Below are positions 10,194 through 55,997 of a DNA stretch of 59,305 nucleotides, piece after piece (positions within the stretch are counted from its first letter, which is position 1; the number at the start of each line of letters is the position of its first letter). Position numbers and translations under genes: made by a program. The DNA comes from an uncultured Gammaproteobacteria bacterium. GTDB lineage: Bacteria; Patescibacteriota; Microgenomatia; Levybacterales; UBA12049. The stretch lies in the NCBI GenBank assembly GCA_964565795.1, contig CAZMGC010000001.1:8855-68159 (forward strand), in the 5' to 3' direction. Under the pieces are notes generated by a model. That model saw only the letters and a program-made list of their open reading frames with translations, did no database searches and was not told the DNA's origin.

Positions 10194-10937
10194 TTATTCT
10201 CCTCCTTTTTTCCAATCGACAGATTTTAGAATTCCTGTAAAAACATCTTCTCCTAAATCTATTTTCATTTCATTAATTTCTTCTTTACTTGGAGTTCTGT
10301 CTACAAAATTTATCTGCCCAATTTCATTTACTATTCCAAGCGGAGTCTGTTCATAAGCTTCTCCCATCTCGAGAACTGATGCTGCTGCGATGCAATCCAC
10401 GATATTTAGAGTTTCCACATGAAGAGGGCGTCCGAAAATATCTGGTTTTCCGATATAGCTTCTAATTGGCTCAAATCCGCACCATGAAAGTCCGACGGCT
10501 GTAACTCCGCGCCTCATAGGTGCCAGTTTGCTATCAGTTACAACCACTCCTAAATTTTTTATCTTATGTTTTTCTCTTAAATATTCCCAGATTTTATTTG
10601 TCGTTTCTGTCAAGTTTTCAGGCCAGAAAATATAGTATCCATTACCATTTGATTCATCAATTCCAGCTGATGCGATTAGAATATTATTTTTAATAGTTAA
10701 AAATACACCGAAGTTTACATATTCCTCAGGTAAATAAAGATCTGCTTCTTTTTTTACCAAGTCCGCTTTATTAATTTTTCCATTGTTTTTGAGAACTCTT
10801 CCCTGGGTAATAGAAATAATTTTCGAGGTAATAACTACGACATCTTTTTCCTGAAGCTTTGGTAATGATTTGTCAAGGATGTCAATAAGTTTATCTGAAA
10901 CTTCTACTTTTTTGGTTTTTATTGGTGTTACTTTCAT
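10194..10937 (-). CDS. CofE-like gamma-glutamyl ligase family protein (F420-0:gamma-glutamyl ligase homologue)
   Basis: 247 aa. VVVITSKIISITQGRV...ASAGIDESNG...VVVTDSKLAPMRRGVTAVGLSW.G...YIGKPDIFGRPL.VE..N..D.IAAA..LEMGE follows the CofE signature. Confidence 0.7.
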   Translation of the reverse strand: MKVTPIKTKKVEVSDKLIDILDKSLPKLQEKDVVVITSKIISITQGRVLKNNGKINKADLVKKEADLYLPEEYVNFGVFLTIKNNILIASAGIDESNGNGYYIFWPENLTETTNKIWEYLREKHKIKNLGVVVTDSKLAPMRRGVTAVGLSWCGFEPIRSYIGKPDIFGRPLHVETLNIVDCIAAASVLEMGEAYEQTPLGIVNEIGQINFVDRTPSKEEINEMKIDLGEDVFTGILKSVDWKKGGE

Positions 10938-11401
10938 GCTGTTTGAATTAAATCAGAAAGACCGTGTTCTTCTAGGAACGCGTGATCAGCTCCGTTTGGA
11001 TTTTCCCCCACAGGCCTTTTTATCCCTGCGATTGTACCATATGAAGGATGAGCAACGGCATCCTCTAATCTTTCTATTACGGCAGTTCCATGATGGGTCG
11101 CGTTATGGGTAAGCCAACTTGCGCCATCTTCAGCGACTAAAACAACTCCTACATGAAATAGTCTAGGGTCTTTATCGGGATTGTCAGTCAGAAAAGCGAT
11201 ATCACCTGTAGCTAATGGTTCATCTGGGGGTACAAATTTTGTGTGTTCTTCATCAACCCAGAGCTCAGCTGAGCGGGGAACATCAAGCATGCTTCTTCCA
11301 AGCGCCTCCACTACAATTCCAGTGTAAAGCTGACAATTCATTCCATCTCCTGGACTTTGTCTTGCAGCTTGTTTGGAAGTATTGCCTGGATGTCGATCCA
11401 A
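10934..11401 (-). CDS. NlpC/P60-like (papain-fold) hydrolase, compositionally atypical; start codon uncertain (TTG in the track)
   Basis: Cys23 (NCQLYTG), GDIAF at 66-70, H83 in FHVGVV and H99 in LTHN give the canonical Cys...GD[IL]xF...HVG...H spacing. The stop overlaps the CofE-like start (ATGA at 10934-10937). The only in-frame ATG is 2 codons before the catalytic Cys, so a non-ATG start or N-terminal decay is implied. Confidence 0.5.
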   Translation of the reverse strand: MDRHPGNTSKQAARQSPGDGMNCQLYTGIVVEALGRSMLDVPRSAELWVDEEHTKFVPPDEPLATGDIAFLTDNPDKDPRLFHVGVVLVAEDGASWLTHNATHHGTAVIERLEDAVAHPSYGTIAGIKRPVGENPNGADHAFLEEHGLSDLIQTA

Positions 11402-11493
11402 TCTGTACGGGATTTGAAGAATTCTTCTTTCTCTAATGAATTTATTTACCTCTTTCGCTGTATAATATAATGGTTAGAGTTCGATTTGTAAAT

Positions 11494-11997
11494 ATGATTA
11501 GTATAATTGCTGCAATTGATTCTAAAAGGGGACTTGGGAAAAATAATGATCTTTTATTTAGAATCCCTGAAGATTTTAAAAGAATGCAAAAAATCACAAT
11601 GGGTCACCCGATCATTATGGGCCGCCGCACTTTCGAATCAATCGGACGACTTCTTCCAGGACGCACTAACATTATTATAACTCGCGATCCTGAGTCTTAT
11701 AGTCTTCCAGCCTCGCAAGGCCAGGCCTTACGAGGCTACTTGGCTTCATCGCTTGATGAGGCGATTGAGATAGCTAAAGAAAGTCCTGGAGGCGAGGAGA
11801 TAGTTATTTTCGGGGGTGGACAGATTTTTACAGAAGCCATAGAAAAAGATTTAGTAGATGTTTTACATCTGACGGTTGTTGAAGGGGATTTCGGAGCTGA
11901 TACCTTTTTCCCAGATTATTCAAAATATACAGAAACAAACAGGGAAGAAAGAGAAGATGAAAATTATAAGTTTACTTTTCTAGATCTTTTGAGATAA
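11494..11997 (+). CDS. folA: Dihydrofolate reductase
   Basis: MISIIAAIDSKRGLGKNNDLLFRIPEDFKRMQKITMGHPIIMGRRTFESIG..LPGR.NII.TR is classical DHFR. The track start 11470 lies only 3 nt after a TATAAT (11461-11466), so the second ATG at 11494 is preferred. Confidence 0.85.
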   Translation: MISIIAAIDSKRGLGKNNDLLFRIPEDFKRMQKITMGHPIIMGRRTFESIGRLLPGRTNIIITRDPESYSLPASQGQALRGYLASSLDEAIEIAKESPGGEEIVIFGGGQIFTEAIEKDLVDVLHLTVVEGDFGADTFFPDYSKYTETNREEREDENYKFTFLDLLR

Positions 11998-12870
11998 TAG
12001 GGCACGCTCTGTAGCTGCTTCTAGTAAGGGATAAGAGTCGATAAACTCATGAATGTTTGGTACGATTTGCCTCATAACTCCAGGATTAAATCCAAATAAT
12101 GCTTTATTAAGTGCGCTTTTTACAGCAGATCTAAAATTGGGATCATTTTTTCCAACTTCATCAAGGCTTTTAACAGCGTCTAAGCTTAGAAGAGTTCCTA
12201 ACGATAGTCCTCCTGCGACGTCTGTAAGTTTCGGAACTCCTAAGCCCTGAATTTGTTCCGCTGAATAAAATCTATAAAATCCTTCGACATAATCAGTAAA
12301 ACCCTGAGGAGAGGAAAAATGTCTAATCAAGTTGGTGTCCAGCACTGCCGTTACTGAATCTGGATTCCCATTTCTTGATCCGCGACCTATAATATAGGTG
12401 CCTGTTTCTACTTCATAATATCCATCTCTGTGCTGTTCTGTTGCGCGTGCCATTTTACCTAAAGTGCGTCTAACGTCTTCAAGGGTTTGTGGTTTTCCAA
12501 GGCTTACAGCTGTCGCTGGGCGATCAGGGGTCAGTCTTTGACCTATATCTGAACTGTGAAGAACCAATGGTCTAGTTCTTACATCAGAGGCTATTACAAA
12601 ATTTCCTGGCCCGCTTGCAAAAGTTCCAATCCTATTATTAGGGTTTGAAGGATCCAGCACAAAATCAGCTTTATGTCTAGCTATTTGAACCATATCCGGA
12701 TGCTCGAGTTCCGGGTTTGGGCCTTCTATAAACATAACTCTATAATTAGAAAAAGATGCTAGTGACAATAGGTAGTGTTGTCTTCGGGGGCTTGTAGTTA
12801 CGCCAATAATTACAGAATCGGGTCGTGGTTCAGGTTCTCTGGCAGAATTGCCCAGAGTTTCTCTTGGCAT
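11980..12870 (-). CDS. Maf-like nucleoside-triphosphate pyrophosphatase homologue with insertions and a C-terminal extension, compositionally atypical
   Basis: IIGVTTSPRRQHYL (Maf: ASxSPRRxxLL), VIASDVRT (Maf: GADTVV) and LGKPQTLEDVRRTLGKM....H.....VETGTYII (Maf: GKP.....A...L..lsG..H.V.TG). 23 Arg against 9 Lys by hand count. The 3' end overlaps the folA 3' end by 18 nt. Confidence 0.5.
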   Translation of the reverse strand: MPRETLGNSAREPEPRPDSVIIGVTTSPRRQHYLLSLASFSNYRVMFIEGPNPELEHPDMVQIARHKADFVLDPSNPNNRIGTFASGPGNFVIASDVRTRPLVLHSSDIGQRLTPDRPATAVSLGKPQTLEDVRRTLGKMARATEQHRDGYYEVETGTYIIGRGSRNGNPDSVTAVLDTNLIRHFSSPQGFTDYVEGFYRFYSAEQIQGLGVPKLTDVAGGLSLGTLLSLDAVKSLDEVGKNDPNFRSAVKSALNKALFGFNPGVMRQIVPNIHEFIDSYPLLEAATERALLSQKI

Positions 12871-12879: not shown

Positions 12880-12908
12880 ATTTTATCACGATTATTTCGT
12901 ATTGACAA
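12880..12908 (-). promoter_or_regulatory. Putative promoter TTGTCA-17-TAAAAT, 9 nt before the ATG of the Maf-like gene
   Basis: rc of 12903-12908 is TTGTCA and rc of 12880-12885 is TAAAAT. Confidence 0.55.
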
Positions 12909-12930
12909 AATAAAGCACCCATAGTATTAT
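12902..12930 (+). promoter_or_regulatory. Putative guaB promoter TTGACA-17-TATTAT, 5 nt before the ATG (leaderless)
   Basis: TTGACA at 12902-12907, TATTAT at 12925-12930, ATG at 12936. Its -35 hexamer overlaps the -35 of the divergent promoter on the other strand. Confidence 0.6.
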
Positions 12931-15636: not shown

Positions 15637-15650
15637 TATAGTTTTGCCCA

Positions 15651-15679
15651 TTGCAACGGGCTAATTCATTTAATATACT
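15651..15679 (+). promoter_or_regulatory. Putative glyA promoter TTGCAA-17-TATACT, 12 nt before the ATG at 15692
   Basis: TTGCAA at 15651-15656 and TATACT at 15674-15679. Confidence 0.5.
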
Positions 15680-15691
15680 CGCTGTAGTTTG

Positions 15692-17015: not shown

Positions 17016-17043
17016 TTGCAAGCCAAATAAAAAGAATTATAAT
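17016..17043 (+). promoter_or_regulatory. Putative promoter TTGCAA-16-TATAAT, 11 nt before the ATG at 17055
   Basis: TTGCAA at 17016-17021 and TATAAT at 17038-17043. It starts 5 nt after the glyA stop. Confidence 0.55.
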
Positions 17044-17054
17044 TGCAACCGAAT

Positions 17055-17399
17055 ATGGTAAGTGAATATAGAGAATATAGCCGTGACGGGATTGGAAAGA
17101 TCCATAAGCCTAAAAATTTTAGGTACAACAGGCTTCCTGAACGCGTAGCTTCGTTTGTCTCATTTGGCCGACCAGTTCCCCATGTTCCGGAAGTGCCATT
17201 ACATGAAGGTGTAGAAATTCCTCTCCGTTACGACAGGAGCCATCTTGATATAGATCATAGATTGGTGGTTTCTGTCGGAGAAGATAGACCATTACCAATA
17301 AGAGAAGTTGTTATAGTAAGCTTACAGCAGCATGCATGGAGAGAATTTTTTGGTCGAATTCTTCATCAATCAGAAGCCCCGTTGCAAAATTCAGGCTGA
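17055..17399 (+). CDS. Hypothetical protein (114 aa, Arg/Pro/His/Val-rich, compositionally atypical orphan)
   Basis: Uninterrupted 114-codon frame in a region of visibly raised G+C, with its own promoter. No family recognised by eye. Coding status uncertain. Confidence 0.35.
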   Translation: MVSEYREYSRDGIGKIHKPKNFRYNRLPERVASFVSFGRPVPHVPEVPLHEGVEIPLRYDRSHLDIDHRLVVSVGEDRPLPIREVVIVSLQQHAWREFFGRILHQSEAPLQNSG

Positions 17400-20583: not shown

Positions 20584-20976
20584 ATGATAAAGAAGACAGA
20601 AGAGGAGTGGAAGAAAACACTCACTCCCAAACAATACGAAATTCTTAGAGAAAAAGGGACAGAGCCAGCCTTTACTGGAGAATATGTAGATAACCATGAA
20701 AATGGAATGTATACATGTGTGGCATGCGGAAATACTTTGTTTGATTCAGGAACTAAGTTTGATTCGGGTAGTGGTTGGCCAAGTTTTTATGATGTAGCGA
20801 CTAAAGGGAATGTAATTTTAGAAGATGACATGAGCTATGGAATGAAAAGAACTGAAGTAAAATGTGCAAATTGTGGGGGACATTTGGGTCATGTTTTTAC
20901 TGACGGACCAAGGGATAAAACTGGTTTACGATACTGTATTAATTCCTGCGCACTAGATTTTAAGAAGAAAGATTAA
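20584..20976 (+). CDS. msrB: Peptide-methionine (R)-S-oxide reductase
   Basis: [18 protein letters not shown] and [13 protein letters not shown]. Confidence 0.95.
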
Positions 20977-21935
20977 AGACCCATTCCGTTTGAATGGGGA
21001 ATAGTACTGACAGGTTCGATCGAATATCCGAGTCTTCTTGCTTCTTTAGCCCAAGCTTTAAATGCTGCTCGATCAACTGGTGTGAAATGGAAGATTGCAC
21101 GATCTCCTGGTTTTAGTGGTAATAAATTGTCAATTGCTTCTTCGACAGATGCTCCATTCCATCCCATTGTGTCTTTGTTCCACATGTCTAATCCCAATTT
21201 TAATTGTTTAGCCGCTGCTACAATTTCTGTGTCTCTTTGTCCTGGTAAAGTTCCTGCTCCATAGGGAGTTCCAAGAGTAAGTTCTTCGATAGGTCTTCTT
21301 AATACTGATCTTAATGCGTTACTCTGTGGTATAACGTGATCAATAACTTCATTTTTTGTAAATGGAGTTAAGTCTGAATGATCATCTGTGTGATTATGCC
21401 ATCTTATTCGTCCTGTAGCTTGACCACGTCTATAATCATCAGGGTATGCCAGTACTGATTGTCCCACAGGATAAACATCCACTGTAGTTCCTAAGTCTTC
21501 AAACATGGAAAAAGCTGCTGCGACTTCTGCCTGATCCCATCCATCATCCCATCTTGCGCGAACGACTTTTCTTTTTGTTCTTTCCTTGTAAATAATTGTT
21601 CCAGGTCCAAACGAAGTTACTCCTCCATTTTCTTCTGCTGTTGATCTTACATCAGGTAATCGAGAAGGATGAGTCCGTTCAAGTCTAGTAAGTTTTCTTC
21701 TAACATCAGAAAGTCTTTGATCTGCTGTAAGTGATTCTTGATCTACAATTGGTTCTCTTTGTGCACCTAGTGCTGTGTGGGGAAGCCATAAATTATGTGC
21801 AACAGCAACTGCAGCTACAGCCGCTCCTGTTACAGCACCTCTTCTTAAAAGTGTTCTTCTACTTAACTGTGCGGATTGACCCGCTGATTGCTCAGCTGAT
21901 ACTGGTCCCGGTTGTGGTGTTTCGTGTCCTGCCAT
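20973..21935 (-). CDS. Polysaccharide deacetylase (NodB/CE4-like) with twin-arginine-type signal peptide, compositionally atypical
   Basis: [23 protein letters not shown] resembles a Tat signal. NodB-like motifs RWDDGW (TFDDG), [11 protein letters not shown] and [16 protein letters not shown] (H[ST]xxH). 28 Arg against 11 Lys by hand count. Overlaps the msrB stop by 4 nt. Confidence 0.6.
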
Positions 21936-21947: not shown

Positions 21948-21976
21948 AGTTTATAATATTATAGGATATTTGTCAA
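21948..21976 (-). promoter_or_regulatory. Putative promoter TTGACA-17-TAAACT, 12 nt before the ATG of the deacetylase gene
   Basis: rc of 21971-21976 is TTGACA and rc of 21948-21953 is TAAACT. Confidence 0.5.
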
Positions 21977-22781: not shown

Positions 22782-23582
22782 TTAAGCAGGGGTATTTTCC
22801 GGAGCACTATTAATTTCATCGTGGATAGCAGCTCTGTCAGGAAAAATCGATCTCATGGCTTCTTCCAGATCTCTAATTGGGGCTCGACCTGTATTTACTA
22901 AAGTACCATTTACTAAATCTTGGACTGTAATCCTTGCAGGACGAGCTGGTGTTCCGTCTTCTGATTCTTTGGTGGCAGGGGAAGCTATAATTAATCTAAT
23001 AGTTTCTTTATTTCTCATTTCCCAGATCGTTACATAGTCCTCGTCTGGTTTTACTTCGATTGCCCAGCGATCATTGTGAGCACCTGTCATCTGATGGAGC
23101 TCGGCTCTTGTGATCTCCGCAGCATCTTTTACAGCTTCTTCAGTTGCTTTCTGAGCTTGCAATTCGTACTCAGCAACTAACTCAGTGATTTTAGCTACAT
23201 CTGCATTTTCATCCCAGCTTCTTTCTCCTGTCCTTGGGTGTAAATGGATTCCTCCAACTCTGGTGCCAAACATCTGAAGAACGTCAGCTCGAATTGATTC
23301 AATTGGTAAGTCTCCTTCAGCTTCTGATTGAAGAGTTGCGGTAATACTAATATCTTCACCAAGCCCCAGTAGCTCTTTTTGCACTTGTAAAGTCCAATAG
23401 GTACCCGGTTCTGTAGATATTCTCAAAGCTGAATCTGGGTTTCCTGTAAGGTAAGTGGATTCCGCTACTACAAATCCCATAGACCTATTAAGTGTTGCTA
23501 TGTTTGCTTCGCGATCTGTTACGCGTGCTGGAATGGCGTCTTTTGGTGTAGCTCCACCGCCTGGGGTAATATCTGGTAGCAT
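22782..23582 (-). CDS. Hypothetical protein (266 aa), atypical composition; third gene of a three-gene cluster
   Basis: Long ORF in a raised-GC segment with its own promoter. Central coiled-coil-like stretch (VAKITELVAEYELQAQKATEEAVKDAAE). No signal peptide. Pro-rich tail ending SAPENTPA. Confidence 0.6.
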   Translation of the reverse strand: MLPDITPGGGATPKDAIPARVTDREANIATLNRSMGFVVAESTYLTGNPDSALRISTEPGTYWTLQVQKELLGLGEDISITATLQSEAEGDLPIESIRADVLQMFGTRVGGIHLHPRTGERSWDENADVAKITELVAEYELQAQKATEEAVKDAAEITRAELHQMTGAHNDRWAIEVKPDEDYVTIWEMRNKETIRLIIASPATKESEDGTPARPARITVQDLVNGTLVNTGRAPIRDLEEAMRSIFPDRAAIHDEINSAPENTPA

Positions 23583-23591: not shown

Positions 23592-23620
23592 AATATACTA
23601 GTTTAAGCCTATAATGTCAA
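23592..23620 (-). promoter_or_regulatory. Putative promoter TTGACA-17-TATATT, 9 nt before the ATG at 23582
   Basis: rc of 23615-23620 is TTGACA and rc of 23592-23597 is TATATT. Confidence 0.6.
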
Positions 23621-23626: not shown

Positions 23627-24157
23627 TTATTCATTTACTGTAGCTTGAGGAGGCTCAACTGTTGGTTCAGTATTTGCGATTCTATCAATTAAAGTTCTTA
23701 ATCCTGACCTTGCAGAGATTATTCCATCTGCATCATCTGGGCTCATGTTGGGATTTGTGTTTGAAGCATATCGGTCAGAAGTTTCCTCAATTTCTTGTGG
23801 ATATTCTACGTCAAGAAAATTTTTAAATCCGAACGCTGCTGTGGGGCCCGTTACTGGTTCTTCGATTGTTGGTTGAGTGGTTTTGGCATATGGACCTGGC
23901 TCTGGGAGGATTCCCAATTCAAATCTACTAAATTGTGATCCAGGAGTCCTAACCACTAAACTCCATGCATCTCCTTCAGGAGTAGTAGTGAAGTCCACAA
24001 AGCTACCGTCAAGGTTTCCAATATGAACTTGCCGAGCGCCTATTAATCCGCGAGCCTGAAGATATCTATCTTTTAAATCATTAACTGTAGCAGGGGTTAA
24101 GGTTTCTGAAGATGATTCTGATCCGCCAATTCCTGGATTTCTGTCTGGTGCTGCCAT
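23627..24157 (-). CDS. Hypothetical protein (176 aa), atypical composition; second gene of the cluster
   Basis: ORF with its own promoter. No signal peptide or TM helix. Tail EPTVEPPQATVNE. Confidence 0.6.
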   Translation of the reverse strand: MAAPDRNPGIGGSESSSETLTPATVNDLKDRYLQARGLIGARQVHIGNLDGSFVDFTTTPEGDAWSLVVRTPGSQFSRFELGILPEPGPYAKTTQPTIEEPVTGPTAAFGFKNFLDVEYPQEIEETSDRYASNTNPNMSPDDADGIISARSGLRTLIDRIANTEPTVEPPQATVNE

Positions 24158-24165: not shown

Positions 24166-24194
24166 AATATACTATTTGAGATTTAGCCTGTCAA
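24166..24194 (-). promoter_or_regulatory. Putative promoter TTGACA-17-TATATT, 8 nt before the ATG at 24157
   Basis: rc of 24189-24194 is TTGACA, immediately after the stop of the upstream gene at 24195-24197. rc of 24166-24171 is TATATT. Confidence 0.6.
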
Positions 24195-24590
24195 TTAGGT
24201 ATTTTCAGGTTGTGGAGGAGTTAGAATTCTTCTCGCTTCGTCTAAAGCAGTTTGAGTAGATGTTCCAGGATTTTGAAAACCAGCTGGATAAACCACCTCA
24301 AAAGATGGATCGATCATGTCTTTACCGCTATAAAAAGTTCTAATAATGAATCTTCTACCATCTTGCGAAGTTCCCGGGAAGGTGACTCTAGTGAGATCTG
24401 GCCCTTTTGTTCCGTCAAACACAAATCCATCTCTTCCAACATACATTTGATCTCTTTTATCCGGTTCTATTCCAGAGCGATTAGCAACTAAATCATTAAT
24501 TTCTGCCACAGCAGATCTCCTCGAAGCACCGTCGAGTCTTGGTTCTTGAGGCGCTAATCCTCTTTTTTCTGCAATAGTTGGGCCTGGCAT
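24195..24590 (-). CDS. Hypothetical protein (131 aa from the ATG), atypical composition; first gene of the cluster
   Basis: The track start 24599 is a TTG. The ATG at 24590 sits 8 nt downstream of a TATATT box, so MPGPTIAEKRG... is the preferred N-terminus. Tail TPPQPENT. Confidence 0.6.
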   Translation of the reverse strand: MPGPTIAEKRGLAPQEPRLDGASRRSAVAEINDLVANRSGIEPDKRDQMYVGRDGFVFDGTKGPDLTRVTFPGTSQDGRRFIIRTFYSGKDMIDPSFEVVYPAGFQNPGTSTQTALDEARRILTPPQPENT

Positions 24591-24598: not shown

Positions 24599-24627
24599 AA
24601 TATACTCTTTGAAACTTTTTGTGTCAA
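24599..24627 (-). promoter_or_regulatory. Putative promoter TTGACA-17-TATATT, 8 nt before the ATG at 24590
   Basis: rc of 24622-24627 is TTGACA and rc of 24599-24604 is TATATT. Confidence 0.6.
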
Positions 24628-28273: not shown

Positions 28274-29545
28274 GTGAAGTACTCTACATTTTTCCCAAAA
28301 GCGAGAAAGTCAGAATTTAAAGATGATCTTTCCGTTAATGCCAAATATTTGGTAAAAGCTGGCTATATCGATCAGCTTATGGCAGGTTCATACACATTAT
28401 TGCCACTTGGTTTTAGGGTTGTTGAGAAAATTAAAAATATTATCCGCGAAGAATTAGATAAAACCGGCGCGCAGGAATTATCAATGCCTCTTCTTCATCC
28501 TAGAGATGTTTGGGATAAAACAGGGAGATGGTCTGACCCTGGCGTGCAAACTATTATGTATCAGTTTAAAGATATCCATGAGAGAGAATTTGGTCTTTCA
28601 TTTACACACGAAGAAATAGTAATGGATTTACTTGGGAAAATGGTGCAATCGTACAAAGATCTTCCAGTAAAGGTCTATCAATTTTCTACCAAATTTAGAA
28701 ATGAACCTCGTGCAAAATCTGGAATTTTAAGAGGAAGAGAGTTTTTAATGAAAGATCTTTATTCGGCTCACGTAAGCGAAGAAGATATGTATGTTTATTA
28801 TAACGCTGTAAAAGAAGCATATCCAAAAATTTTCAAACGTCTTGGTCTAGATTCCATAACAGTTGAAGCCTCTGGGGGAGTATTTACTGAAAAAAATAGT
28901 CACGAATTCCAAGTAATAAGCGACGTTGGGGAAGACACTATCTATTTTTGCGATTGTTCTGGAAAAGACTGTCACTGTAAATTTGCGCAGAATAAAGAAT
29001 TGTTTAAAGGCAACGATGGAGATAAATGCCCAGAGTGTGATGATTGCACAGTAAAATCAGCCAAGTCCATAGAGGTAGGAAATATTTTCCCACTTGGAAC
29101 TAAATATTCTCAAAACATGAAAGTTTTATTTACAGATGAAGAGGGAGCGCAGCAAAATATTTGGTTTGCGTCATATGGAATTGGGCCAACTAGAGTCATG
29201 GGAACTCTTGTAGAAATATTTCATGATGACAGAGGGATTATCTGGCCAAAAAGTGTTGCACCATACCATGTTTATTTAGTAAGTCTTGGAAGAAATGAAG
29301 AGGCTGAGGAAATAGAAAAAAAGCTAGAAGAAAAAGGAATAGAGGTTTTATATGACGATAGAGATGTCTCAGCTGGAGAAAAATTCGCAAACGCGGATTT
29401 ACTCGGTCTTCCATATCGCTTGGTTATTTCTCAAAAAACAGGAGATAGGATCGAATTTAAGGAAAGAAATAGTCAGGACATAGAACTTTTAACTTTAGAA
29501 GAAATTATTTCTAAAATTGGGGAAGAAAAGGAATTTGTAGTTTAA
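28274..29545 (+). CDS. proS: Prolyl-tRNA synthetase, short form without an editing insertion (GTG start)
   Basis: YLVKAGYIDQL.AGSYT.LPLG.RV..KI, class II motif 2 FRNE.R...G..R.REF, motif 3 near SYGIG..R, and a Cys cluster CDCSGKDCHC...CPECDDC at the insertion point. Confidence 0.85.
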   Translation: MKYSTFFPKARKSEFKDDLSVNAKYLVKAGYIDQLMAGSYTLLPLGFRVVEKIKNIIREELDKTGAQELSMPLLHPRDVWDKTGRWSDPGVQTIMYQFKDIHEREFGLSFTHEEIVMDLLGKMVQSYKDLPVKVYQFSTKFRNEPRAKSGILRGREFLMKDLYSAHVSEEDMYVYYNAVKEAYPKIFKRLGLDSITVEASGGVFTEKNSHEFQVISDVGEDTIYFCDCSGKDCHCKFAQNKELFKGNDGDKCPECDDCTVKSAKSIEVGNIFPLGTKYSQNMKVLFTDEEGAQQNIWFASYGIGPTRVMGTLVEIFHDDRGIIWPKSVAPYHVYLVSLGRNEEAEEIEKKLEEKGIEVLYDDRDVSAGEKFANADLLGLPYRLVISQKTGDRIEFKERNSQDIELLTLEEIISKIGEEKEFVV

Positions 29546-29927
29546 ATACGTAAATCCATACAAAAGTGTAGGCTACCAATAAGACTATTACTCCAAGACC
29601 TAAAACCAAAGACATCATTTTTGATCCTCCATGCTTTACGGTAGCGCCTTGATTTTTACCAGGATTATTTGCGTTAAAGGCTATAGTTCCGCCGCCGATT
29701 GGAGAAGGAGCTGCTGGAGCTGCGGGTGCAGCTTGTGGCATAACTGGAGCAGCAGGTTGAACAGGAGCTGGAGCTATAGGTTGTGCGCCGATTGCAGGAT
29801 TAAAGGGTGGAGGAGCTACAGGCGGAGGAGGTGGAACAGCTCCACCAGGAGGTGTAGCGGGTCCATTCATAACTCTATCGTATGCTTCTTGAAGTTTTGG
29901 GTCAGTAGCGGACAGCTTTGGATCCAT
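29511..29927 (-). CDS. Pro/Ala-rich tail-anchored membrane protein, atypical composition
   Basis: 138 aa with ~70 residues of P/A-rich low complexity, then one C-terminal TM helix (MMSLVLGLGVIVLLVAYTFVWIYVF). The 3' end overlaps the proS 3' end by 35 nt. Confidence 0.5.
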   Translation of the reverse strand: MDPKLSATDPKLQEAYDRVMNGPATPPGGAVPPPPPVAPPPFNPAIGAQPIAPAPVQPAAPVMPQAAPAAPAAPSPIGGGTIAFNANNPGKNQGATVKHGGSKMMSLVLGLGVIVLLVAYTFVWIYVFKLQIPFLPQF

Positions 29928-36890: not shown

Positions 36891-38198
36891 ATGAGAATTT
36901 ATAATTCACTAACTCGTAGTGTTGAGGATTTTAAGCCCCAGATAGACACAGTAACAATATACACCTGCGGGCCTACTACTTATGACTTCATGCACATCGG
37001 AAATCTTAGAACTTTTCTTATGGCGGATCTTTTTGAAAGAGCCTTGAGATTTAACGGTTTGAATCTTAAGACGGTTCAAAACATAACTGATATTGATGAT
37101 AAGATTATTCGAAGAGCACAGGAGCGGGGAATAGGAATTTCAGAGCTTTCACATGAATTTGAAGAGTTTTTCTTTAGTGATATAAAAAGTTTGAACATAT
37201 TACCTAAAGACATGGTAACGAAAGCTACAGCTTATGTTCAAAAAATGGAAGACTACATCGCAGATCTTATAAAAAAAGGATTTGCTTATGTCGAGAAAGA
37301 TGGATCTGTTTATTTTGATATTTCTAAATTTTCAGACTACGGAAAATTATCAAGAATTGAAGCCGCAAATCTAAAATCGGGCACAAGAGTTTTATCTGAT
37401 GATTATTCTAAAGATGATGTTCAGGATTTCGCACTGTGGAAAGCAGAACCAAAAGACGCCGTAGGTTACGCTTCACAGTGGGGATGGGGAAGACCTGGCT
37501 GGCATATAGAGTGCTCTGTCATGAGTCAGGAAAATTTAGGCGAAACTCTAGATGTCCACATGGGTGGAATTGATTTGCTTTTTCCTCATCACGAAAATGA
37601 AATTGCCCAATCAGAAGCTAAAACCGGAAAACAATTTGTAAATTATTGGATACACGGTGCATTTATATTAGTGGATGGAAAAAAGATGAGTAAATCTTTA
37701 GGAAACTTTTATAAATTAAAAGACATTATTGATAAAGGAATTGACCCTCTAGCTTTAAGATATTTATATTTACAAACTCACTACAGACAGGAAATGAATT
37801 TTACATGGGAAGCTTTGGAGGCCGCACAAACAGCTTTAAATAAATTGCGAAGGAATTATTCCGAAGCAAAATCAGGTAACGAAAAACTCCCATCAGGATT
37901 TTCTGAAGCAATTAATGATGATTTAAATATGCCACGTGCTTTAGGAGTTGTCTGGGAAAATATTGGGAGCTTGTCAAAAGTATCACTTGATAAAATTGAT
38001 TCTGTTTTAGGTTTGAATTTATCCCAAAAAGAAGAAGAAATTGAAATTCCATCAGATATTAAAGTGTTGGTAGATAAAAGGGAGGAAGCAAGAAAATCAG
38101 GAGATTATGAGAATGCAGACAAGATTCGTAATGAGGTTGAAAGCAAAGGATTTGTTATTGAAGATTCTAAGGGTAGAATAAGGATTAGAAAAGCTTAA
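36891..38198 (+). CDS. cysS: Cysteinyl-tRNA synthetase
   Basis: YTCGPT.YD..HIGN.R (HIGH motif), WHIECS, HHENE and KMSKSLGN. Confidence 0.95.
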   Translation: MRIYNSLTRSVEDFKPQIDTVTIYTCGPTTYDFMHIGNLRTFLMADLFERALRFNGLNLKTVQNITDIDDKIIRRAQERGIGISELSHEFEEFFFSDIKSLNILPKDMVTKATAYVQKMEDYIADLIKKGFAYVEKDGSVYFDISKFSDYGKLSRIEAANLKSGTRVLSDDYSKDDVQDFALWKAEPKDAVGYASQWGWGRPGWHIECSVMSQENLGETLDVHMGGIDLLFPHHENEIAQSEAKTGKQFVNYWIHGAFILVDGKKMSKSLGNFYKLKDIIDKGIDPLALRYLYLQTHYRQEMNFTWEALEAAQTALNKLRRNYSEAKSGNEKLPSGFSEAINDDLNMPRALGVVWENIGSLSKVSLDKIDSVLGLNLSQKEEEIEIPSDIKVLVDKREEARKSGDYENADKIRNEVESKGFVIEDSKGRIRIRKA

Positions 38199-38524
38199 AC
38201 TTTTCCTTCTCCAGGCTGACGGGGAGCTTCTGGTTGTGCTGGTTTTGGAGCCTGATCGCTAAGAGATCCTACTTGATGAGGAGCTAAACCTCTTATTTCA
38301 TCGACTACAGCTTCTGTTTCATGTTCACCTAACCTATTTACGTCATCAACTCCAATAATTTCTCCCATTGTTCTGTTTGGTCTATTTCCCGTAACTCTTC
38401 TCAGAATTCTTGTTGCTAATGATGGGGCTTGTTGTTCGGTAAAAGGAGCTCCAGTAGAATCAAGTCGTCCATGTTTTTCATCTGTTACTTTTTCTAAATC
38501 AATATCTGGATCTAGGTTAGTCAT
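38195..38524 (-). CDS. Hypothetical protein (109 aa), atypical composition with a Pro-rich tail
   Basis: ORF in a raised-GC segment with its own promoter. Overlaps the cysS stop by 4 nt. Tail APKPAQPEAPRQPGEGKV. Confidence 0.5.
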   Translation of the reverse strand: MTNLDPDIDLEKVTDEKHGRLDSTGAPFTEQQAPSLATRILRRVTGNRPNRTMGEIIGVDDVNRLGEHETEAVVDEIRGLAPHQVGSLSDQAPKPAQPEAPRQPGEGKV

Positions 38525-39599: not shown

Positions 39600-40316
39600 A
39601 TGGGTAAATTCTTGAGAAATATTCTATTGGTTTCTTCAGTAATACTTTTAGCAGGAGTATTTTACACTACAAACTCATTTGCTAATGAAGAGGAAGATGC
39701 TGATGTTGCGTCCGAGGCGACTCAGTCTGTTAATGCTACTCCTACGATAAAAAACTTTAAGGCAGAAAATGTTAAAGAGAGAATTCAAAACGCTAAAGAG
39801 AAGAATAAGGATCTTAAGGAGAAAAGAGAAGCGAGAATAACGGAAATGAAACAAAAAAAGGAAGAAAGATTGTCTGAAGCGAGACTTAAAGTATGCGAAG
39901 CAAAAGAAAAAAATATTGAAAATCGTGTTGAGATGATGAAAAAAAGAGCAGAGGTAATACATAAGGGGCACGAAAAAATTTATCAAAGAGTAGATGAATT
40001 TTATAATAATAAGTTGGTTCAAAATGGATACATTCTTTCAAATTATGCCGACTTGAAATCAGAGGTGGTTGCTAATAAGGAAAATGTTAAAACTGCTTTT
40101 GAAACTGCAAAAGCAAGTCGTGAAGAGTTTGACTGCAATTCCGCAGATCCAAAAGCTCAAGTAGACGCATTTAAAGATGATATGAAGGAATTGATCGAAG
40201 CGAATAAAGCTTATAAAGAATCAATCCATGTATTCGTAAAAGCGGTTCGTGATTTAGCAAAAACTGTAACTCCCGTAAAAGTTAGCCCATCGTCAGTAGA
40301 GGAGGTAAGTGAATAA
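39600..40316 (+). CDS. Secreted Lys/Glu-rich coiled-coil protein (hypothetical)
   Basis: Signal-like N-terminus (ILLVSSVILLAGVFYTTNSFA), then a charged helical sequence. Confidence 0.6.
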   Translation: MGKFLRNILLVSSVILLAGVFYTTNSFANEEEDADVASEATQSVNATPTIKNFKAENVKERIQNAKEKNKDLKEKREARITEMKQKKEERLSEARLKVCEAKEKNIENRVEMMKKRAEVIHKGHEKIYQRVDEFYNNKLVQNGYILSNYADLKSEVVANKENVKTAFETAKASREEFDCNSADPKAQVDAFKDDMKELIEANKAYKESIHVFVKAVRDLAKTVTPVKVSPSSVEEVSE

Positions 40317-48746: not shown

Positions 48747-48749
48747 CTG

Positions 48750-52056: not shown

Positions 52057-54899
52057 TCCAGACAGTTAGGGTTTTATCAAAACTAGAAGAAGAGGATTTG
52101 AAGGGAAGTTCTCTTTTAAAAAATTTAAAAAATCCTAAAATTACGAAGGTCCGTTCTGTTAGGGTTTATAGGCTTGAAGGAATAGATAAAAAATCTGCTA
52201 AATATTTAGCAGAAAAATTATTATCAGAATCTATTAATCAAAAATACACAATTAATGAACCGGTATTTAATGCTCGCTCAAGAATAGAAATCGCTTATAA
52301 ACCAGGAGTTATGAATCCTGAAGCAGCATCGCTTTTAAAATCTGCAAAAGATTTAAAAATAAAATTAAAAGCAGCAGATTCTTCATGGGAATATTATTTT
52401 TTTGGGCCTTTTAATATTGAAAATATTAATAATCTTGGACTTTTTAACCCACTTATAGAATATTTAGTTGATGCTCCACCGAAAACTTTATTGATTGAGG
52501 GAAAAACAGGTCCGACAAATATCGTAAAGGTTAGGGAGTCGACAGACGAAGAGCTTATGGCGCTCTCTAAAGATAAGTTATTTTTAAATTTATCGGAAAT
52601 GAAAGTAATTCAAAATTACTTTAATAAAATTAAAAGGGATCCGACAGATATAGAGCTTGAAACCTTAGCTCAAACTTGGAGTGAGCATTGCGCGCATAAA
52701 ACATTTAAAGCAAATTTAATTGTTGATGGAAAAAAGAAAGCGCCATTAATTCAAAGAATTAAAAATGAAGCATTGCGACATCCAAAAAATATTGTTTCAG
52801 CTTTTGGTGATAACTCAGGTGTAATGAAATTTTATGATGGATACTCGATTTGCGGAAAAGTAGAAACTCACAATTCTCCTTCAGCCATTGAGCCATATGG
52901 AGGAGCAATGACAGGTAGCGGTGGGGTTTTTAGAGATGTTTTGGGAACTGGTCATGGAGCTAAAGCAATAGCTAGTACTGATATGTTTTGTTTTGCGGAT
53001 CCAAATTTGCCTAGAAAAGATTTACCGCCAGGTTGTCTCCATCCGGAATATCTATTTAAAAGGGTGGTCGCCGGAGTTAGAGACTATGGAAATAGAATGG
53101 GTATTCCAACAAATAACGGTTCTGTGCATTTTCATAATGATTTCCGAGCAAAACCTACTATTATAGTTGGAGCTTATGGATTAATTCCGACAAAATTTGC
53201 ACAGAAAGGAAAACCAAAATCTGGAGATGTGGTAATCGCAGTCGGGGGTCGTACTGGGAGAGATGGAGTACACGGTGCAACTTTTTCTTCTGGTGAAATG
53301 ACAGATAAGACAATTTCGGTGAATTCTTCTGCAGTTCAAATAGGCAATGCGATAGAAGAAAAAAGAATGTTCGATGCAATTCTTGAGGCGAGAGACCAGG
53401 GATTAATTCGTGCAATTACAGATTGTGGTGCTGGTGGATTTTCTTCAGCTGTCGGAGAAATTGGTTCAAAGACAGGTGTAAAAGTTGATTTATCTCTTGC
53501 ACCACTTAAATACCATGGGCTTTCTCCATGGGAAATTTGGGTTTCTGAATCCCAGGAGAGAATGGTATTAGCGGTAAGTAAAAAATATTCAAAAAAAGTT
53601 TTGGAAATATGTAAGAAGTTTAATGTAGAAGCAACTATTCTAGGTAAATTTACTAACACAAAAAAGCTTGAAGTTTATTTTGGTAAAAACAAAATTGCAG
53701 ATTTGTCTATGGATTTTTTGCATGATGGTCTTCCTCAAAGAACTATGATTGCAAGAAAATCTGACATTCAAATTTCTAAAAATAAAAAATTACCAAAGGA
53801 GCCAAGAAGTGAAACTGAATGGATTGATATATTTAAAAAAATACTTTCTCATGGGAATGTAAACTCTAAAGAACCAATCGTTAGGCTTTATGATCATTCT
53901 GTTCAGGGTACCAATGATCTCCAGCCATATTCTGGAGAGAAAATGGACTCGCCAAATGACAGTGTAGTAATTAGACCAATTTTAAATAAAAAATATGGAA
54001 TGGTATTGTCACATGGAATGAACCCTATTTTAAATAGAATTGATCCTTACAATGGGAGTATTTGGGCAGGGATAGAAGCGCTTTCGAATTATGTAGCGGT
54101 TGGGGGAAATATCGAAGAAGCATCTTTAATAAATAATTACATTTGGCCATTCCCCGACGAAGAGTCATTATATCGTCTGGATAAATCGGTTGATGCTGTA
54201 GTGGATATTATGAAAGCGCTAAGGATTCCGGTTATTTCTGGAAAAGATAGTCTATCTTCAACTTACAGAAAAGGGGATTTGATAATAAAAATTCCTCCAG
54301 TTTTATGTATTTCTGTTTTTGGAAGAATTCCAGATACATCAAAAACTGTTTCAACAGACTTTAAAAATCCTGGCCGCCATGGAAAGCAAGGCATTGCAGG
54401 CGGGGAAAATTCTGTTATTTGTCTTGTCGGAGACTTGGATATTAATTCCATGGGAGGATCTACTTATTTTGACGTGAATAATATTTTAGGGGAAAGTGTT
54501 CCTAAAATTGATTTAAAGAAATTTGAAAAAATTGCAAAAGCCATTAATAAAGGAATTAATTCGGGAGAAATTTTATCTTGTCATGATATCTCAGAGGGAG
54601 GTTTGTTCTCAAGCATTTTTGATATGTGTTCTGGAGGAGATATGGGGGCTAATTTAAAAATTAACAAAAAAGAAAAACTGGACTATTTTCTCTTCAATGA
54701 AACTGCAGGAACTTTTGTAGTTGAGTTAGGAAATGAAAAAATTGCAAAAAAAATATTTAAAGATGTTAAATTTAAAATTTTAGGAAAAACTCAAAAAGAA
54801 AAAAAGATAAACATAAATTTTGAAAATAAAAAAATATCAGCTGACCTTTATGATTTAAAGAAGGCATGGCAAAAACCAATGAAGGAGATGTTTGCATGA
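52053..54899 (+). CDS. purL: FGAM synthase II with fused N-terminal PurS-like domain (PurS-PurL)
   Basis: The N-terminal ~80 aa are PurS-like (...KLLSESINQKYTINE). Then L..IE.......WSEHC.HK.F, ETHN.PSA.EPY.GA.TG.GG..RD and GG.TGRDG..GA.FSS. The ATG at 52053 overlaps the purD stop (ATGA). Confidence 0.9.
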   Translation: MIQTVRVLSKLEEEDLKGSSLLKNLKNPKITKVRSVRVYRLEGIDKKSAKYLAEKLLSESINQKYTINEPVFNARSRIEIAYKPGVMNPEAASLLKSAKDLKIKLKAADSSWEYYFFGPFNIENINNLGLFNPLIEYLVDAPPKTLLIEGKTGPTNIVKVRESTDEELMALSKDKLFLNLSEMKVIQNYFNKIKRDPTDIELETLAQTWSEHCAHKTFKANLIVDGKKKAPLIQRIKNEALRHPKNIVSAFGDNSGVMKFYDGYSICGKVETHNSPSAIEPYGGAMTGSGGVFRDVLGTGHGAKAIASTDMFCFADPNLPRKDLPPGCLHPEYLFKRVVAGVRDYGNRMGIPTNNGSVHFHNDFRAKPTIIVGAYGLIPTKFAQKGKPKSGDVVIAVGGRTGRDGVHGATFSSGEMTDKTISVNSSAVQIGNAIEEKRMFDAILEARDQGLIRAITDCGAGGFSSAVGEIGSKTGVKVDLSLAPLKYHGLSPWEIWVSESQERMVLAVSKKYSKKVLEICKKFNVEATILGKFTNTKKLEVYFGKNKIADLSMDFLHDGLPQRTMIARKSDIQISKNKKLPKEPRSETEWIDIFKKILSHGNVNSKEPIVRLYDHSVQGTNDLQPYSGEKMDSPNDSVVIRPILNKKYGMVLSHGMNPILNRIDPYNGSIWAGIEALSNYVAVGGNIEEASLINNYIWPFPDEESLYRLDKSVDAVVDIMKALRIPVISGKDSLSSTYRKGDLIIKIPPVLCISVFGRIPDTSKTVSTDFKNPGRHGKQGIAGGENSVICLVGDLDINSMGGSTYFDVNNILGESVPKIDLKKFEKIAKAINKGINSGEILSCHDISEGGLFSSIFDMCSGGDMGANLKINKKEKLDYFLFNETAGTFVVELGNEKIAKKIFKDVKFKILGKTQKEKKININFENKKISADLYDLKKAWQKPMKEMFA

Positions 54900-55675
54900 A
54901 GCCTAGAGCAATAATAATAAAAGCTGATGGAATAAATCGTGATGAAGATATGGTTTTCGCATTTAATCTGGCTGGAGCGGATGCAAAACTAGTACACATA
55001 AATGATTTAAAAACAAAAAAGGAAAAATTATCTGATTATCAAATTCTAGGAATACCGGGAGGATTTGCTTATGGAGATGACATAGTTTCTGGGAAAGTTT
55101 TAGCAACTGAAATTGTGGCTTTTCTTGGGGAAGAAATCCGGAGGTTTGTAAAGCGACCAAATACAGCAGTATTGGGAGTTTGTAATGGTTTTCAGGTTTT
55201 AGTTAGAACAGGGCTTGTTCCATTTAATCGAATAGGAGATATGGATGCAACACTTGTTAATAATGATTCAGGACATTTTGAATGTAGATGGGTAAAAGTA
55301 AAAGCAGAGAAAAATTCAAAATCAAAATTTTTGAATACATATAATGATGAAATAATCTGGATGCCAATAGCTCATGGAGAAGGAAAGTTTTTGGCAGAAC
55401 AGAAAGTTTTGGACAGAGTTGAAAAAGAAAATTTGGTCGCTTTTAGATATGTAGATGAAAAGGGAAATCCAACCCAGAAATATCCAGATAATCCTAACGG
55501 ATCAATGAATGCGATAGTTGGAATAACAGATGAGACCGGAAGAGTATTGGGTCTTATGCCGCATCCGGAATGTTTCGTAAGACGCGAACAACACCCAAAC
55601 TGGCGCCGAGGTTTGATTGAATCGCCTCAAGGTTTACCTTTATTTAAGAATATTGTTAAATTTGTCACTTCCTAA
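54896..55675 (+). CDS. purQ: FGAM synthase I (glutaminase subunit)
   Basis: PGGF.YGD, the catalytic Cys context GVCNGFQ.L, and the C-terminal MPHPE. The ATG at 54896 overlaps the purL stop (ATGA), with SD GAAGGAG upstream. Confidence 0.9.
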   Translation: MKPRAIIIKADGINRDEDMVFAFNLAGADAKLVHINDLKTKKEKLSDYQILGIPGGFAYGDDIVSGKVLATEIVAFLGEEIRRFVKRPNTAVLGVCNGFQVLVRTGLVPFNRIGDMDATLVNNDSGHFECRWVKVKAEKNSKSKFLNTYNDEIIWMPIAHGEGKFLAEQKVLDRVEKENLVAFRYVDEKGNPTQKYPDNPNGSMNAIVGITDETGRVLGLMPHPECFVRREQHPNWRRGLIESPQGLPLFKNIVKFVTS

Positions 55676-55681
55676 TATAAT
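55653..55681 (+). promoter_or_regulatory. Putative internal promoter TTGTTA-17-TATAAT straddling the purQ stop, 7 nt before the ATG at 55689
   Basis: TTGTTA at 55653-55658, TATAAT at 55676-55681, purQ stop at 55673-55675. Confidence 0.5.
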
Positions 55682-55688
55682 TTCCAGC

Positions 55689-55997
55689 ATGACAAGGCCT
55701 AATGAGAATCCAGAGTTTATGGGAGAAATTGATTTAGTAATAATGCCAGGTAGAAGTTCTATGTTAGGTTTTGGAGAGCCCAAAGGATATTTTCAAATAC
55801 TGCAAGGTGAGTGTTTAGTGAGATATGGAAATGTAACGGAAACTGTGGATGGGAGAAGAATTGGTTGGAGTGAAGATGGTGGTGGTAAGGAGGTTTTTAA
55901 AAGAGGCGATGTTTTTGGGGCAGGAGATGGGAGAGTGGTAAATCTTAGAAATGCAGGTGTGGAATTAGCTGTAGTGCATAAAATTAATACACAATGA
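55689..55997 (+). CDS. Small Gly/Arg/Val-rich beta-type protein (cupin-like?) inserted between purQ and purM
   Basis: 102 aa: MTRPNENPEFMGEIDLVIMPG...GDVFGAGDGRVVNLRNAGVELAVVHKI. The stop overlaps the purM ATG (ATGA at 55994-55997). Composition differs from the flanking pur proteins. Confidence 0.5.
   Translation: MTRPNENPEFMGEIDLVIMPGRSSMLGFGEPKGYFQILQGECLVRYGNVTETVDGRRIGWSEDGGGKEVFKRGDVFGAGDGRVVNLRNAGVELAVVHKINTQ

Follow-up and report, generated by a model that had tools for sequence, protein, structure and literature searches.

We analysed a 59.3-kb stretch of DNA (35.6% G+C; contig CAZMGC010000001.1, positions 8,855 to 68,159; hereafter the window), which is a genome fragment of a groundwater bacterium with tiny cells, of the lineage Candidatus Levybacteria (Microgenomates, within the Candidate Phyla Radiation, CPR). 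Ten dispersed open reading frames (ORFs) of the window, named here F1 to F10 in coordinate order, had been described in a first-pass annotation as foreign-looking in amino-acid composition but host-like in promoters and codon choice, and all ten are indeed present. We observed that nine of them are accessory genes of one genus-level Levybacteria clade, located in fixed slots at core operon boundaries. Where core proteins are 89-100% identical between two genomes, the slot contains either an allele of only 33-70% identity or an unrelated ORF that shares the composition, or it is empty. What is unusual in the composition lies wholly at the protein level, in codon positions 1 and 2. Our tentative explanation, to which we give somewhat less than an even chance, is an old GC-rich ancestry that is slowly eroding in genes which circulate within the clade.

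The unusual composition is confined to codon positions 1 and 2

The comparison with the background, taken as the 52 other ORFs of the window and proposed as a check by the first-pass annotation, gave a clear difference at the first two codon positions. The G+C content of position 1 (GC1) is 0.582 in the ten flagged ORFs versus 0.465 in the background, that of position 2 (GC2) is 0.456 versus 0.344, and the mean over both positions is 0.519 versus 0.405 (Mann-Whitney p=9e-7), whereas at position 3 (GC3) the two sets are the same (0.239 versus 0.248, p=0.86). When counted by lines of 60 nucleotides (nt), G+C is higher inside the flagged ORFs, as was first noted, but the contrast had been overstated: the means are 42.8% inside and 34.9% outside, with overlapping ranges.

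The ratio R/(R+K) is 0.66 in the flagged proteins versus 0.29 in the background and the fraction of K+N+I+F+Y is 0.18 versus 0.31. In the pooled proteins, Pro reaches 2.05 times the background level, Arg 1.95, His 1.55, Ala 1.5 and Gln 1.4 times, while Lys falls to 0.33, Cys to 0.13 and Ile, Tyr and Phe to about 0.65 times. Cys represents 0.1% of the residues versus 0.8%; the net charge of the flagged proteins is acidic, and Pro plus Gly make up 0.193 of their first 25 residues versus 0.080 in core proteins (p=7.5e-11). Earlier hand counts of 28 Arg against 11 Lys in F4 (320 amino acids, aa) and of 23 against 9 in F2 (296 aa) were exact. The description of an Arg-rich, foreign-looking class holds for nine ORFs and fails for F8 (R 1%, K 4%), which belongs to another class.

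Codon choice, as had been proposed, is that of the host: synonymous codon fractions of flagged and background ORFs are correlated (r=0.92), AGA represents 64% of Arg codons versus 59%, and the four Arg codons in the twin-arginine translocation (Tat)-like signal of F4 (20973..21935) are all AGA. If the synonymous choices at the first position of Arg and Leu codons were reversed, the GC1 of the flagged ORFs would be 0.67 (GC2 0.46). A genome of 55-65% G+C would, by our estimate, encode proteins with about these values.

Nine of the ten ORFs occupy hypervariable slots between core genes

A scan with RseP, limited to one genome per species, gave 80 syntenic loci, numbered L002 onward, and further loci were added by exact-protein look-ups, including the closest relative, L083/L087, a 169-kb contig. 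Nearly all of the credibly titled loci from the RseP scan belong to Candidatus Levybacteria/Levyibacteriota. RseP identity to the window is 95% in L002, 85-87% in L003-L006, 77-79% in L007-L009, 65-67% in L010/L011 and at most 56% in the others. Many syntenic Levybacteria-type contigs (among L002-L081) are deposited as metagenome-assembled genomes of an 'uncultured Gammaproteobacteria bacterium', labels that are apparently wrong.

When the ten proteins were searched against all loci with tblastn, homologues of nine ORFs were found only in the closest relatives (L001-L009, L012, L071 and L083-L090), far below the identity of the flanking genes and discordant with it. These nine genes evolve 5-20 times faster than their neighbours. 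Between the window and L083, core proteins are 93-100% identical, with about 0.03 nonsynonymous substitutions per site (dN), whereas F5 is 70%, F3 65%, F7 58% and F4 only 35% identical (dN 0.72 for F4). In L085, 6PGL is 89% identical, F5 47% and the deacetylase F4 33%. In L090, CysS is 96% identical, whereas the ORF in the F9 slot has 142 aa and is 36% identical over 84 residues only; in L088 this slot contains an unrelated 89-aa ORF. For F1, the order of identities (90% in L007, 27-33% in L003 and L006) is the reverse of that of the core genes.

The slot between SHMT and rpsB illustrates this turnover: it contains F3 in five genomes, an unrelated family of 350-511 aa in L007, L008 and L012, and an unrelated 130-aa ORF in L009, and all these occupants have the same odd composition. 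Divergent or non-homologous occupants were observed in the slots SHMT|rpsB, msrB|6PGL, 6PGL|G6PD, cysS|Na-Ca-exchanger and guaA|SHMT. Since occupants differ among close relatives, alleles are gained, lost and swapped at the slots within the clade; as their relationships depart from the core-gene tree, the alleles are exchanged within a gene pool of the clade. Presence and absence at the orthologous junctions, another check that had been suggested, thus proved variable at these slots, and the nine ORFs are not a vertically inherited core. With their clade-limited homologues and fast evolution, these nine are a real and separate class, in support of the first-pass annotation.

L083 has an extra Arg-rich ORF (L083:17903-18455; 115-123 aa, R 9%, K 1%, GC3 0.23) between guaA and SHMT, where the window has only a 52-nt spacer (15636-15689). 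This ORF is flanked by a 22-nt direct repeat, TTTGCCTGTTGCAATAG[G/T]CTAA, in which the -35 box TTGCAA lies inside a 4-bp hairpin; the single copy in the window (GCCCATTGCAACGGGC) has a compensatory pair of changes in its stem. Judged from these repeats, the arrangement looks like a cassette insertion with duplication of the promoter hairpin. The slot adjoining rseP/msrB holds in L010 (7632-10929) and L084 (3437-7550) two large genes, one with a HATPase_c_3 domain, which resemble a defence-type pair; the slots therefore also take larger accessory cargo. Core-type genes are replaced as well in the region 26527-28254: in place of the MBL-fold gene 26527-27288, L005, L007 and L083 have an unrelated 222-aa gene (with an HD domain called in L083/L087), and the 6PGDH-like gene 27343-28254 is 58-63% identical in L007, L008 and L083 where its neighbours are 85-95% identical.

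The flagged ORFs are genuine genes

Most of the ten ORFs are without family assignment, short and antisense to the main coding strand, and we therefore considered that they could be artefacts: spurious ORFs, antisense shadows, frame-shifted relics, de novo ORFs, or products of chimeric assembly or binning. Several observations make this hardly credible. The order GC1 > GC2 > GC3 in the called frame could not result from reading a host-type gene antisense or out of frame, and six-frame blastx detected no relic of another gene; this position-specific arithmetic and the blastx result together rule out an antisense or frame-shift origin. The ratio of nonsynonymous to synonymous substitutions (dN/dS, Nei-Gojobori) is 0.05-0.27 for F1, F2, F3, F5, F7 and F8, well under 1, most flanking core genes having 0.03-0.10. 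The F5 structural model is confident and the catalytic motifs of F4 are kept. The same genes are found in synteny in independent assemblies from different samples, and at 36% G+C chance is very unlikely to produce ORFs as long as 100-320 codons. Taken together, these sequence comparisons indicate that the flagged ORFs are genuine protein-coding genes.

The slot genes carry native promoters, and no donor was found

As reported by the first-pass annotation, eight of the ten ORFs lie on the minus strand, their ends overlap or abut the neighbouring genes by 4-35 nt, and nine of them, with F1 as the exception, are preceded by a TTGACA-like box, 16-17 nt, a TAnnnT box and then 7-12 nt to the ATG. 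Most slot genes are convergent with the upstream core gene and have their own native leaderless promoter of the sigma-70 type. The identical leaderless design was found at the core genes IMPDH (12902-12930) and G6PD (24609-24637), and the promoters of the flagged ORFs are therefore native in type. It is apparently a rule throughout the genome, core genes included, that the -10 box ends 5-12 nt upstream of the ATG and that a Shine-Dalgarno sequence is lacking.

On the minus strand, the leaderless F2 promoter (12880..12908) consists of TTGTCA, 17 nt, TAAAAT and 9 nt to the ATG, and the F4 promoter (21948..21976) of TTGACA, 17 nt, TAAACT and 12 nt. Those of F5 (23592..23620), F6 (24166..24194) and F7 (24599..24627) all have TTGACA, 17 nt and TATATT, followed by 9, 8 and 8 nt respectively; the F6 promoter is 71% identical to that of F5 (repeat D4) and the F7 promoter stands back to back with the plus-strand G6PD promoter at 24609-24637. 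The F9 promoter (38536-38564) reads TTGTCA, 17 nt, TATATT and 11 nt. On the plus strand, F10 has TTGTTA, 17 nt, TATAAT and 7 nt (55653-55681, with 22 of its 29 nt within the 3' end of purQ), and F3 has TTGCAA, 16 nt, TATAAT and 11 nt (17016..17043). The motif TTGCAA, 16-17 nt, TATAATTGC is present twice, at 17016-17046 in the F3 promoter and at 17382-17413 inside the 3' end of F3. The second copy, which has a 17-nt spacer, acts as the promoter of rpsB; rpsB thus has a leader of some 75 nt, in contrast to the leaderless genes nearby.

The amino-acid make-up of the flagged proteins resembles that of a 55-65% G+C proteome, as does the GC1 of 0.67 once Arg and Leu choices are undone, and the nearest CE4 matches of F4 outside its own family are mostly Arg-rich and Tat-signalled. 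This would be expected of genes acquired recently and directly from a high-GC organism, for example the host of the episymbiont. However, the ranking of those CE4 matches is biased by the composition of the query, and GC3 and the synonymous codon fractions are indistinguishable from those of the host. Native promoters and tight packing with 4-35-nt overlaps, the lack of integrase genes, tRNAs or att-like repeats, and the lack of any similar sequence in a high-GC context also speak against it. None of 38 odd ORFs from 11 genomes has a raised GC3, recent gains included (mean difference from the background -0.02, maximum +0.04), which excludes a recent high-GC import for all practical purposes; we consider it extremely improbable. 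In L008 and L084, in which core GC3 is higher, the odd ORFs have a lower GC3 than their hosts. Since GC3 is never elevated, even in ORFs that were recently gained or replaced, the immediate source must be other low-GC Levybacteria. No donor lineage was found, and the suggestion that the host lineage of the episymbiont had been the donor is left without evidence.

The search for relatives was exhaustive for F4. HMMER searches against 1.84e9 representative proteins gave 143 matches at E<=1e-3; the F4 subfamily accounts for about eight clusters, all Arg-rich, Cys-free and Tat-signalled, and beyond it the matches are distant CE4 proteins. A pattern scan with a subset of five sequences, the alignment of nine being too divergent, gave one metagenome locus. 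In a neighbour-joining tree of CE4 proteins the subfamily stands on an isolated long branch, which is uninformative on the donor. No homologue of the flagged ORFs was found outside low-GC CPR contexts, and the orphans gave nothing significant in PHROGs, NCBIfam, PADLOC, PDB sequences, IMG/VR, GenBank phages or PLSDB plasmids. With the PADLOC defence models, none of the ten ORFs matched at E<=0.1.

A phage origin was also considered and rejected, with no support in any of four resources: matches in PHROGs were weak (E>=0.001), and none was found in IMG/VR scans with F1, F2 and F5, by tblastn of F1 against GenBank phages, or in BFVD with the F5 fold. No tRNA gene, Rfam family or convincing flanking repeat that would mark a mobile element was detected in the 59-kb window.

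Compositional legacy or selection on composition

We propose that the founders of these genes entered from a GC-richer background before the clade radiated, and that their make-up, rich in Arg, Pro, Ala and Gly and poor in Lys and Cys, would be a legacy at the protein level. Synonymous sites and promoters would have equilibrated fully to the 36% G+C host, constrained residues would be held by purifying selection, and unconstrained ones would drift slowly to A/T-coded amino acids. The CE4 deacetylase with its putative Tat signal and the NlpC/P60-like protein may point to roles at the cell envelope or at the interface between cells.

Synonymous divergence (dS) is saturated across the clade, from 0.7 to more than 2, so that equilibration of GC3 and the switch from CGN to AGA codons are expected to be complete in anything older than the clade. 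In conserved alignment columns, the flagged families have 8.2% Arg and 1.0% Lys, versus 4.2% and 8.7% in core families, and their variable columns are nearer to the host, with 6.0% Lys. Among polarised singletons at positions 1 and 2, GC-to-AT changes outnumber AT-to-GC changes in the flagged genes (243 versus 174), whereas the core genes have 428 versus 492 (Fisher p=7.5e-5); Arg, Ala, Gly and Pro residues of the flagged genes show 89 losses and 47 gains. The polarisation is suggestive only, because at third positions AT-to-GC far exceeds GC-to-AT even in core genes. An excess of Arg over Lys in rare ORFs is limited to this clade and its sister loci, and the rare ORFs of other low-GC Levybacteria and Microgenomates have none (0.357 versus 0.332, p=0.54); being peculiar to the clade, it indicates history and not a generic property of accessory genes.

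Several observations weigh against this explanation. The A/T-ward excess is reduced to 58 versus 45 and is no longer significant (p=0.17) when the closest relative serves as ingroup, and polarisation by parsimony is biased towards changes from common to rare. No donor was found: the F4 family stands isolated among CE4 proteins, and the other families are without homologues outside the clade. The uniformly low GC3 of the 38 odd ORFs means that all primary acquisitions must be old, which resembles a burst. In addition, the composition persists in the F4 family at 24-45% identity and in hypervariable columns, and selection predicts the same. The old horizontal gene transfer (HGT) offered as one alternative by the first-pass annotation is thus compatible with the saturated dS, the nearly Lys-free conserved columns and the A/T-ward substitutions, but lacks a donor lineage.

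The composition could, instead, be held by selection, in a functional class of proteins that an episymbiont would export, expose on its surface or direct at its host, and on which diversifying selection would act. Avoidance of Lys and Cys, acidity and Pro/Gly-rich disordered N-termini would then be functional, for example in export or in survival outside the cell or inside a host. Eight members of the F4 family (24-45% identity) each keep 21-33 Arg and 10-15 Lys although just 9 of the 87 Arg-bearing columns are common to at least six sequences; F5 alleles down to 47% identity retain 10-11% Arg; and among hypervariable columns the F4 family has an R/(R+K) of 0.65 and the F5 family one of 0.42-0.61, versus about 0.2 in core proteins. 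Such persistence is by itself no proof of selection, because most GC-rich codons need more than one nucleotide change to become a Lys codon and rarely reach one in a single step, so that slow decay is compatible as well. The near absence of Cys, the acidic charge and the Pro/Gly-rich first 25 residues would also fit, as would a GC3 that is not elevated even in a gene acquired after the closest relative had split off. The conserved Tat-like signal and cell-wall-type enzyme domain of F4, the NlpC/P60-like character of F1, and a CE4 two-gene module of the same signature in the unrelated low-GC, CPR-like context L082 point in the same direction.

Other observations do not agree with selection. A recognisable export signal is present in F4 only, and Sec-type secreted proteins of the window are Lys-rich (for example 39600..40316, K 13%). 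Lys is tolerated at variable columns (6%), the rare slot ORFs of other Levybacteria have no excess of Arg over Lys, and the net drift is towards A/T-coded residues. We regard selection on composition as unlikely, though still deserving serious consideration.

As background, a type IV secretion system akin to the conjugation machinery of monoderms, and probably obtained by HGT, is reported from CPR bacteria, Microgenomates among them (preprint 10.1101/2025.01.22.634366). A more far-reaching reading is also conceivable. The slot genes could form a hypervariable Lys- and Cys-depleted repertoire with Pro/Gly-rich disordered N-termini, delivered outside the cell or into a partner organism. The deacetylase would travel by Tat, and the others by a route that needs no signal, for which the type IV system is one example. 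The composition would then be selected, for example as an escape from lysine-directed modification or degradation or from oxidising conditions, and new members would enter the slots as promoter-carrying cassettes by duplication of the promoter hairpin, as in L083. This is a speculative proposal, and we consider it improbable as a whole.

Three general causes of the composition were rejected. GC-biased gene conversion is ruled out by position 3, which is not raised, and a strand or replication bias by the other minus-strand genes, which have a normal composition. Intrinsic disorder is ruled out at least for F5, which folds confidently.

The ten ORFs and their surroundings

Of the families named in the first-pass annotation, the CE4 deacetylase passes the curated threshold, whereas the NlpC/P60 and Maf assignments stay below theirs. 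F4 (20973..21935, minus strand) encodes a CE4 polysaccharide deacetylase of 320 aa, with a predicted twin-arginine signal at the N-terminus, and overlaps the 3' end of msrB by 4 nt. It matches Pfam PF01522 with 38.1 bits (cut-off 23.1) and keeps the catalytic and metal-binding motifs (Asp-Asp, His-x3-His and the distal His) at D130/D131, H182, H186 and H283, as seen in nine sequences of 24-94% identity, D131 and the three His being invariant. R26 and R27 are also invariant in the nine sequences and are followed by an Ala/Val-rich stretch and ALGA; with TIGR01409 the score is 15.4 bits, just under the cut-off of 16.7. Identity is only 30-35% in relatives with core genes 85-97% identical, and dN/dS is 0.57-0.59.

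F1 (10934..11401, minus strand) has 155 aa from the TTG at 11401 and 135 aa from the ATG at 11341 (MNCQ...), and it is the latter start that is found in relatives. Its GC1 is 0.65, GC2 0.42-0.44 and GC3 0.28, its dN/dS 0.05. The family alignment contains a conserved GD..H..HN. The window protein has no match to NlpC/P60 (PF00877) at E<=1, one of five family members matches (E=0.0017), and in a PDB profile search NlpC/P60 chains rank first with E=0.1-0.2 only. Candidate residues for a Cys...His...His/Asn catalytic arrangement, C23, H83 and H99/N100, are present in F1 of the window and in its counterparts from L007 and L008; in L003 and L006 the called ORFs begin past the Cys position. F1 is therefore best treated as a candidate NlpC/P60-like protein of the papain fold, a lead below threshold.

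F2 (11980..12870, minus strand; 296 aa) is weakly Maf-like in its N-terminal half and overlaps the 3' end of the DHFR gene convergently by 18 nt. It scores 20.5 bits with Maf (PF02545; cut-off 27), covering positions 7-110 of the 187 in the profile, and all four family members give sub-threshold Maf matches (best E=8.9e-5). F2 had no match in PDB, and its single-sequence AlphaFold model was unusable (predicted local distance difference test, pLDDT, 37). It is 57-74% identical in L003, L006 and L007, with dN/dS 0.10-0.27.

F3 (17055..17399, plus strand) encodes a 114-aa Arg-rich orphan (R 11%, K 3%) in the SHMT|rpsB slot, 63-67% identical in L002, L003, L005, L006 and L083, with dN/dS 0.24-0.29. 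Between its orthologues L003:7482-7838 and L005:4284-4640, dS is 0.31, versus 0.8-1.2 for neighbouring genes, which reflects either a recent exchange between the lineages or an extra constraint at the nucleotide level.

F5 (22782..23582, minus strand) is a 266-aa orphan, predicted by AlphaFold2 to have two modules of helix plus beta-sheet and disordered termini. With an alignment of 20 sequences the model has pLDDT 81.6 and pTM 0.75, and a Foldseek search with it gave no match with TM >0.25 in PDB or BFVD. The family comprises 20 rare proteins, and every member seen in its context sits in the Levybacteria synteny block; F5 alleles are 47-89% identical where the adjoining 6PGL is 89-93% identical. 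F6 (23627..24157, minus strand; 176 aa) is an orphan with no homologue in any locus except the same-strain contig L001. Over its first 70 aa it has a weak similarity to the N-terminus of F5 (hhalign E=0.008 against the F5 family), and beyond this BLAST and hhalign detected no paralogy among the ten. F7 (24195..24590, minus strand) is a 131-aa orphan with the annotated start MPGPT..., 58-69% identical in L003, L005 and L083, with dN/dS 0.09-0.24. F9 (38195..38524, minus strand) is an acidic 109-aa orphan in the cysS|Na-Ca-exchanger slot and overlaps the 3' end of cysS by 4 nt. F10 (55689..55997, plus strand) is a 102-aa orphan between purQ and purM which overlaps the start of purM by 4 nt. Its GC1 is 0.53, GC2 0.41, GC3 0.23 and R/(R+K) 0.67; its 90% cluster has three members, and it is the weakest member of the Arg-rich class.

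F8 (29511..29927, minus strand) does not belong to this class and is conserved across Levybacteria. It encodes a 138-aa Pro/Ala-rich, low-complexity, tail-anchored protein with a C-terminal transmembrane helix, adjoins proS/ddl and overlaps the 3' end of proS by 35 nt. It is 96% identical in L083 and gave tblastn matches at the syntenic position in L005, L007, L008, L013, L037, L043, L045, L056, L074, L077, L078 and L081. For F8, then, orthologues of the same composition are found across the lineage, the outcome which the first-pass annotation had named as refuting its reading.

The surrounding housekeeping genes, mostly on the plus strand, include IMPDH, GMP synthase, SHMT, rpsB, tsf, frr, rseP, msrB, 6PGL, G6PD, proS, ddl, cysS and a purine-synthesis operon. 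Read from the translations, the set for de novo purine synthesis is apparently near-complete (45654-57088; purK/E/C/F/N/D/L/Q/M-like), and genes of the oxidative pentose-phosphate pathway (6PGL, G6PD and 6PGDH-like) lie at 22029-28254; together they form a seemingly broad biosynthetic set for a CPR genome. The membrane protein encoded at 43438-45102 has the C-terminus SSGFSGGSSGGGGGGGGGGSW, with a run of ten glycines. Downstream of recR, 36095-36838 encodes a 247-aa low-complexity protein rich in Q, A, P, T and K (GC1 0.58, GC2 0.43, K 11%), a compositional outlier of another kind than the flagged ORFs; at this position L087-L091 have a gene of similar size with no Pfam domain.

Discussion

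The nine slot genes share features with several known systems. In the position-specific amelioration model that Lawrence and Ochman are said to have put forward in 1997, the fastest sites equilibrate first; positions 1 and 2 of a GC-rich type, a position 3 like that of the recipient and a restricted phyletic distribution agree with ameliorating HGT genes. Here, however, all of about 38 genes have completed synonymous amelioration and none is intermediate; neither a donor nor mobility genes were seen, and turnover goes on even among very close relatives, a feature not expected from simple old HGT. As for the usual signs of HGT, codon usage and GC3 are not atypical, the distribution is patchy and discordant with the core, and no donor lineage was found.

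Replacement flexible islands, also called hypervariable or metagenomic islands, are known from free-living bacteria, with O-antigen, pilin and glycosylation loci as examples. The slots resemble them in their fixed positions between core genes and in their divergent or non-homologous alleles, which differ between close relatives and depart from the core phylogeny. Unlike these islands, the units here comprise one to three genes rather than multi-gene clusters and are found at about ten operon boundaries within 59 kb, with their own leaderless promoters and a shared odd composition. It is this single-gene scale, together with the complete synonymous equilibration and the shared composition, that sets the present case apart from both ameliorated HGT and flexible islands.

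Daubin and Ochman reportedly found in 2004 that enterobacterial ORFans are A+T-richer than the genome at all positions. The flagged genes are likewise short, lineage-restricted, fast-evolving and without known homologues, but they are G+C-richer at positions 1 and 2 and genome-like at position 3. CE4 carbohydrate esterases (PF01522) include the peptidoglycan and chitin deacetylases PgdA and NodB. F4 exceeds the Pfam threshold of this family and keeps its motifs, but it is very divergent, predicted to be Tat-targeted and part of a small hypervariable subfamily specific to the clade.

CPR genomes are tiny and highly syntenic, and little is known of the genes through which these bacteria depend on other cells. 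Near-identical Levybacteria differ to a large extent in single-gene slots at operon boundaries, whose genes can be recognised by a signature in the sequence: high G+C at positions 1 and 2, a native position 3 and more Arg than Lys. This signature offers a cheap way of listing candidate strain-specific or interface proteins in CPR genomes. The case is also a clean natural system in which legacy and selection could be told apart as causes of protein composition. If the legacy is real, it would date a burst of foreign gene uptake to the origin of the clade; if the composition is selected, it would point to a so far unrecognised constraint on the exported or effector proteins that episymbionts make.

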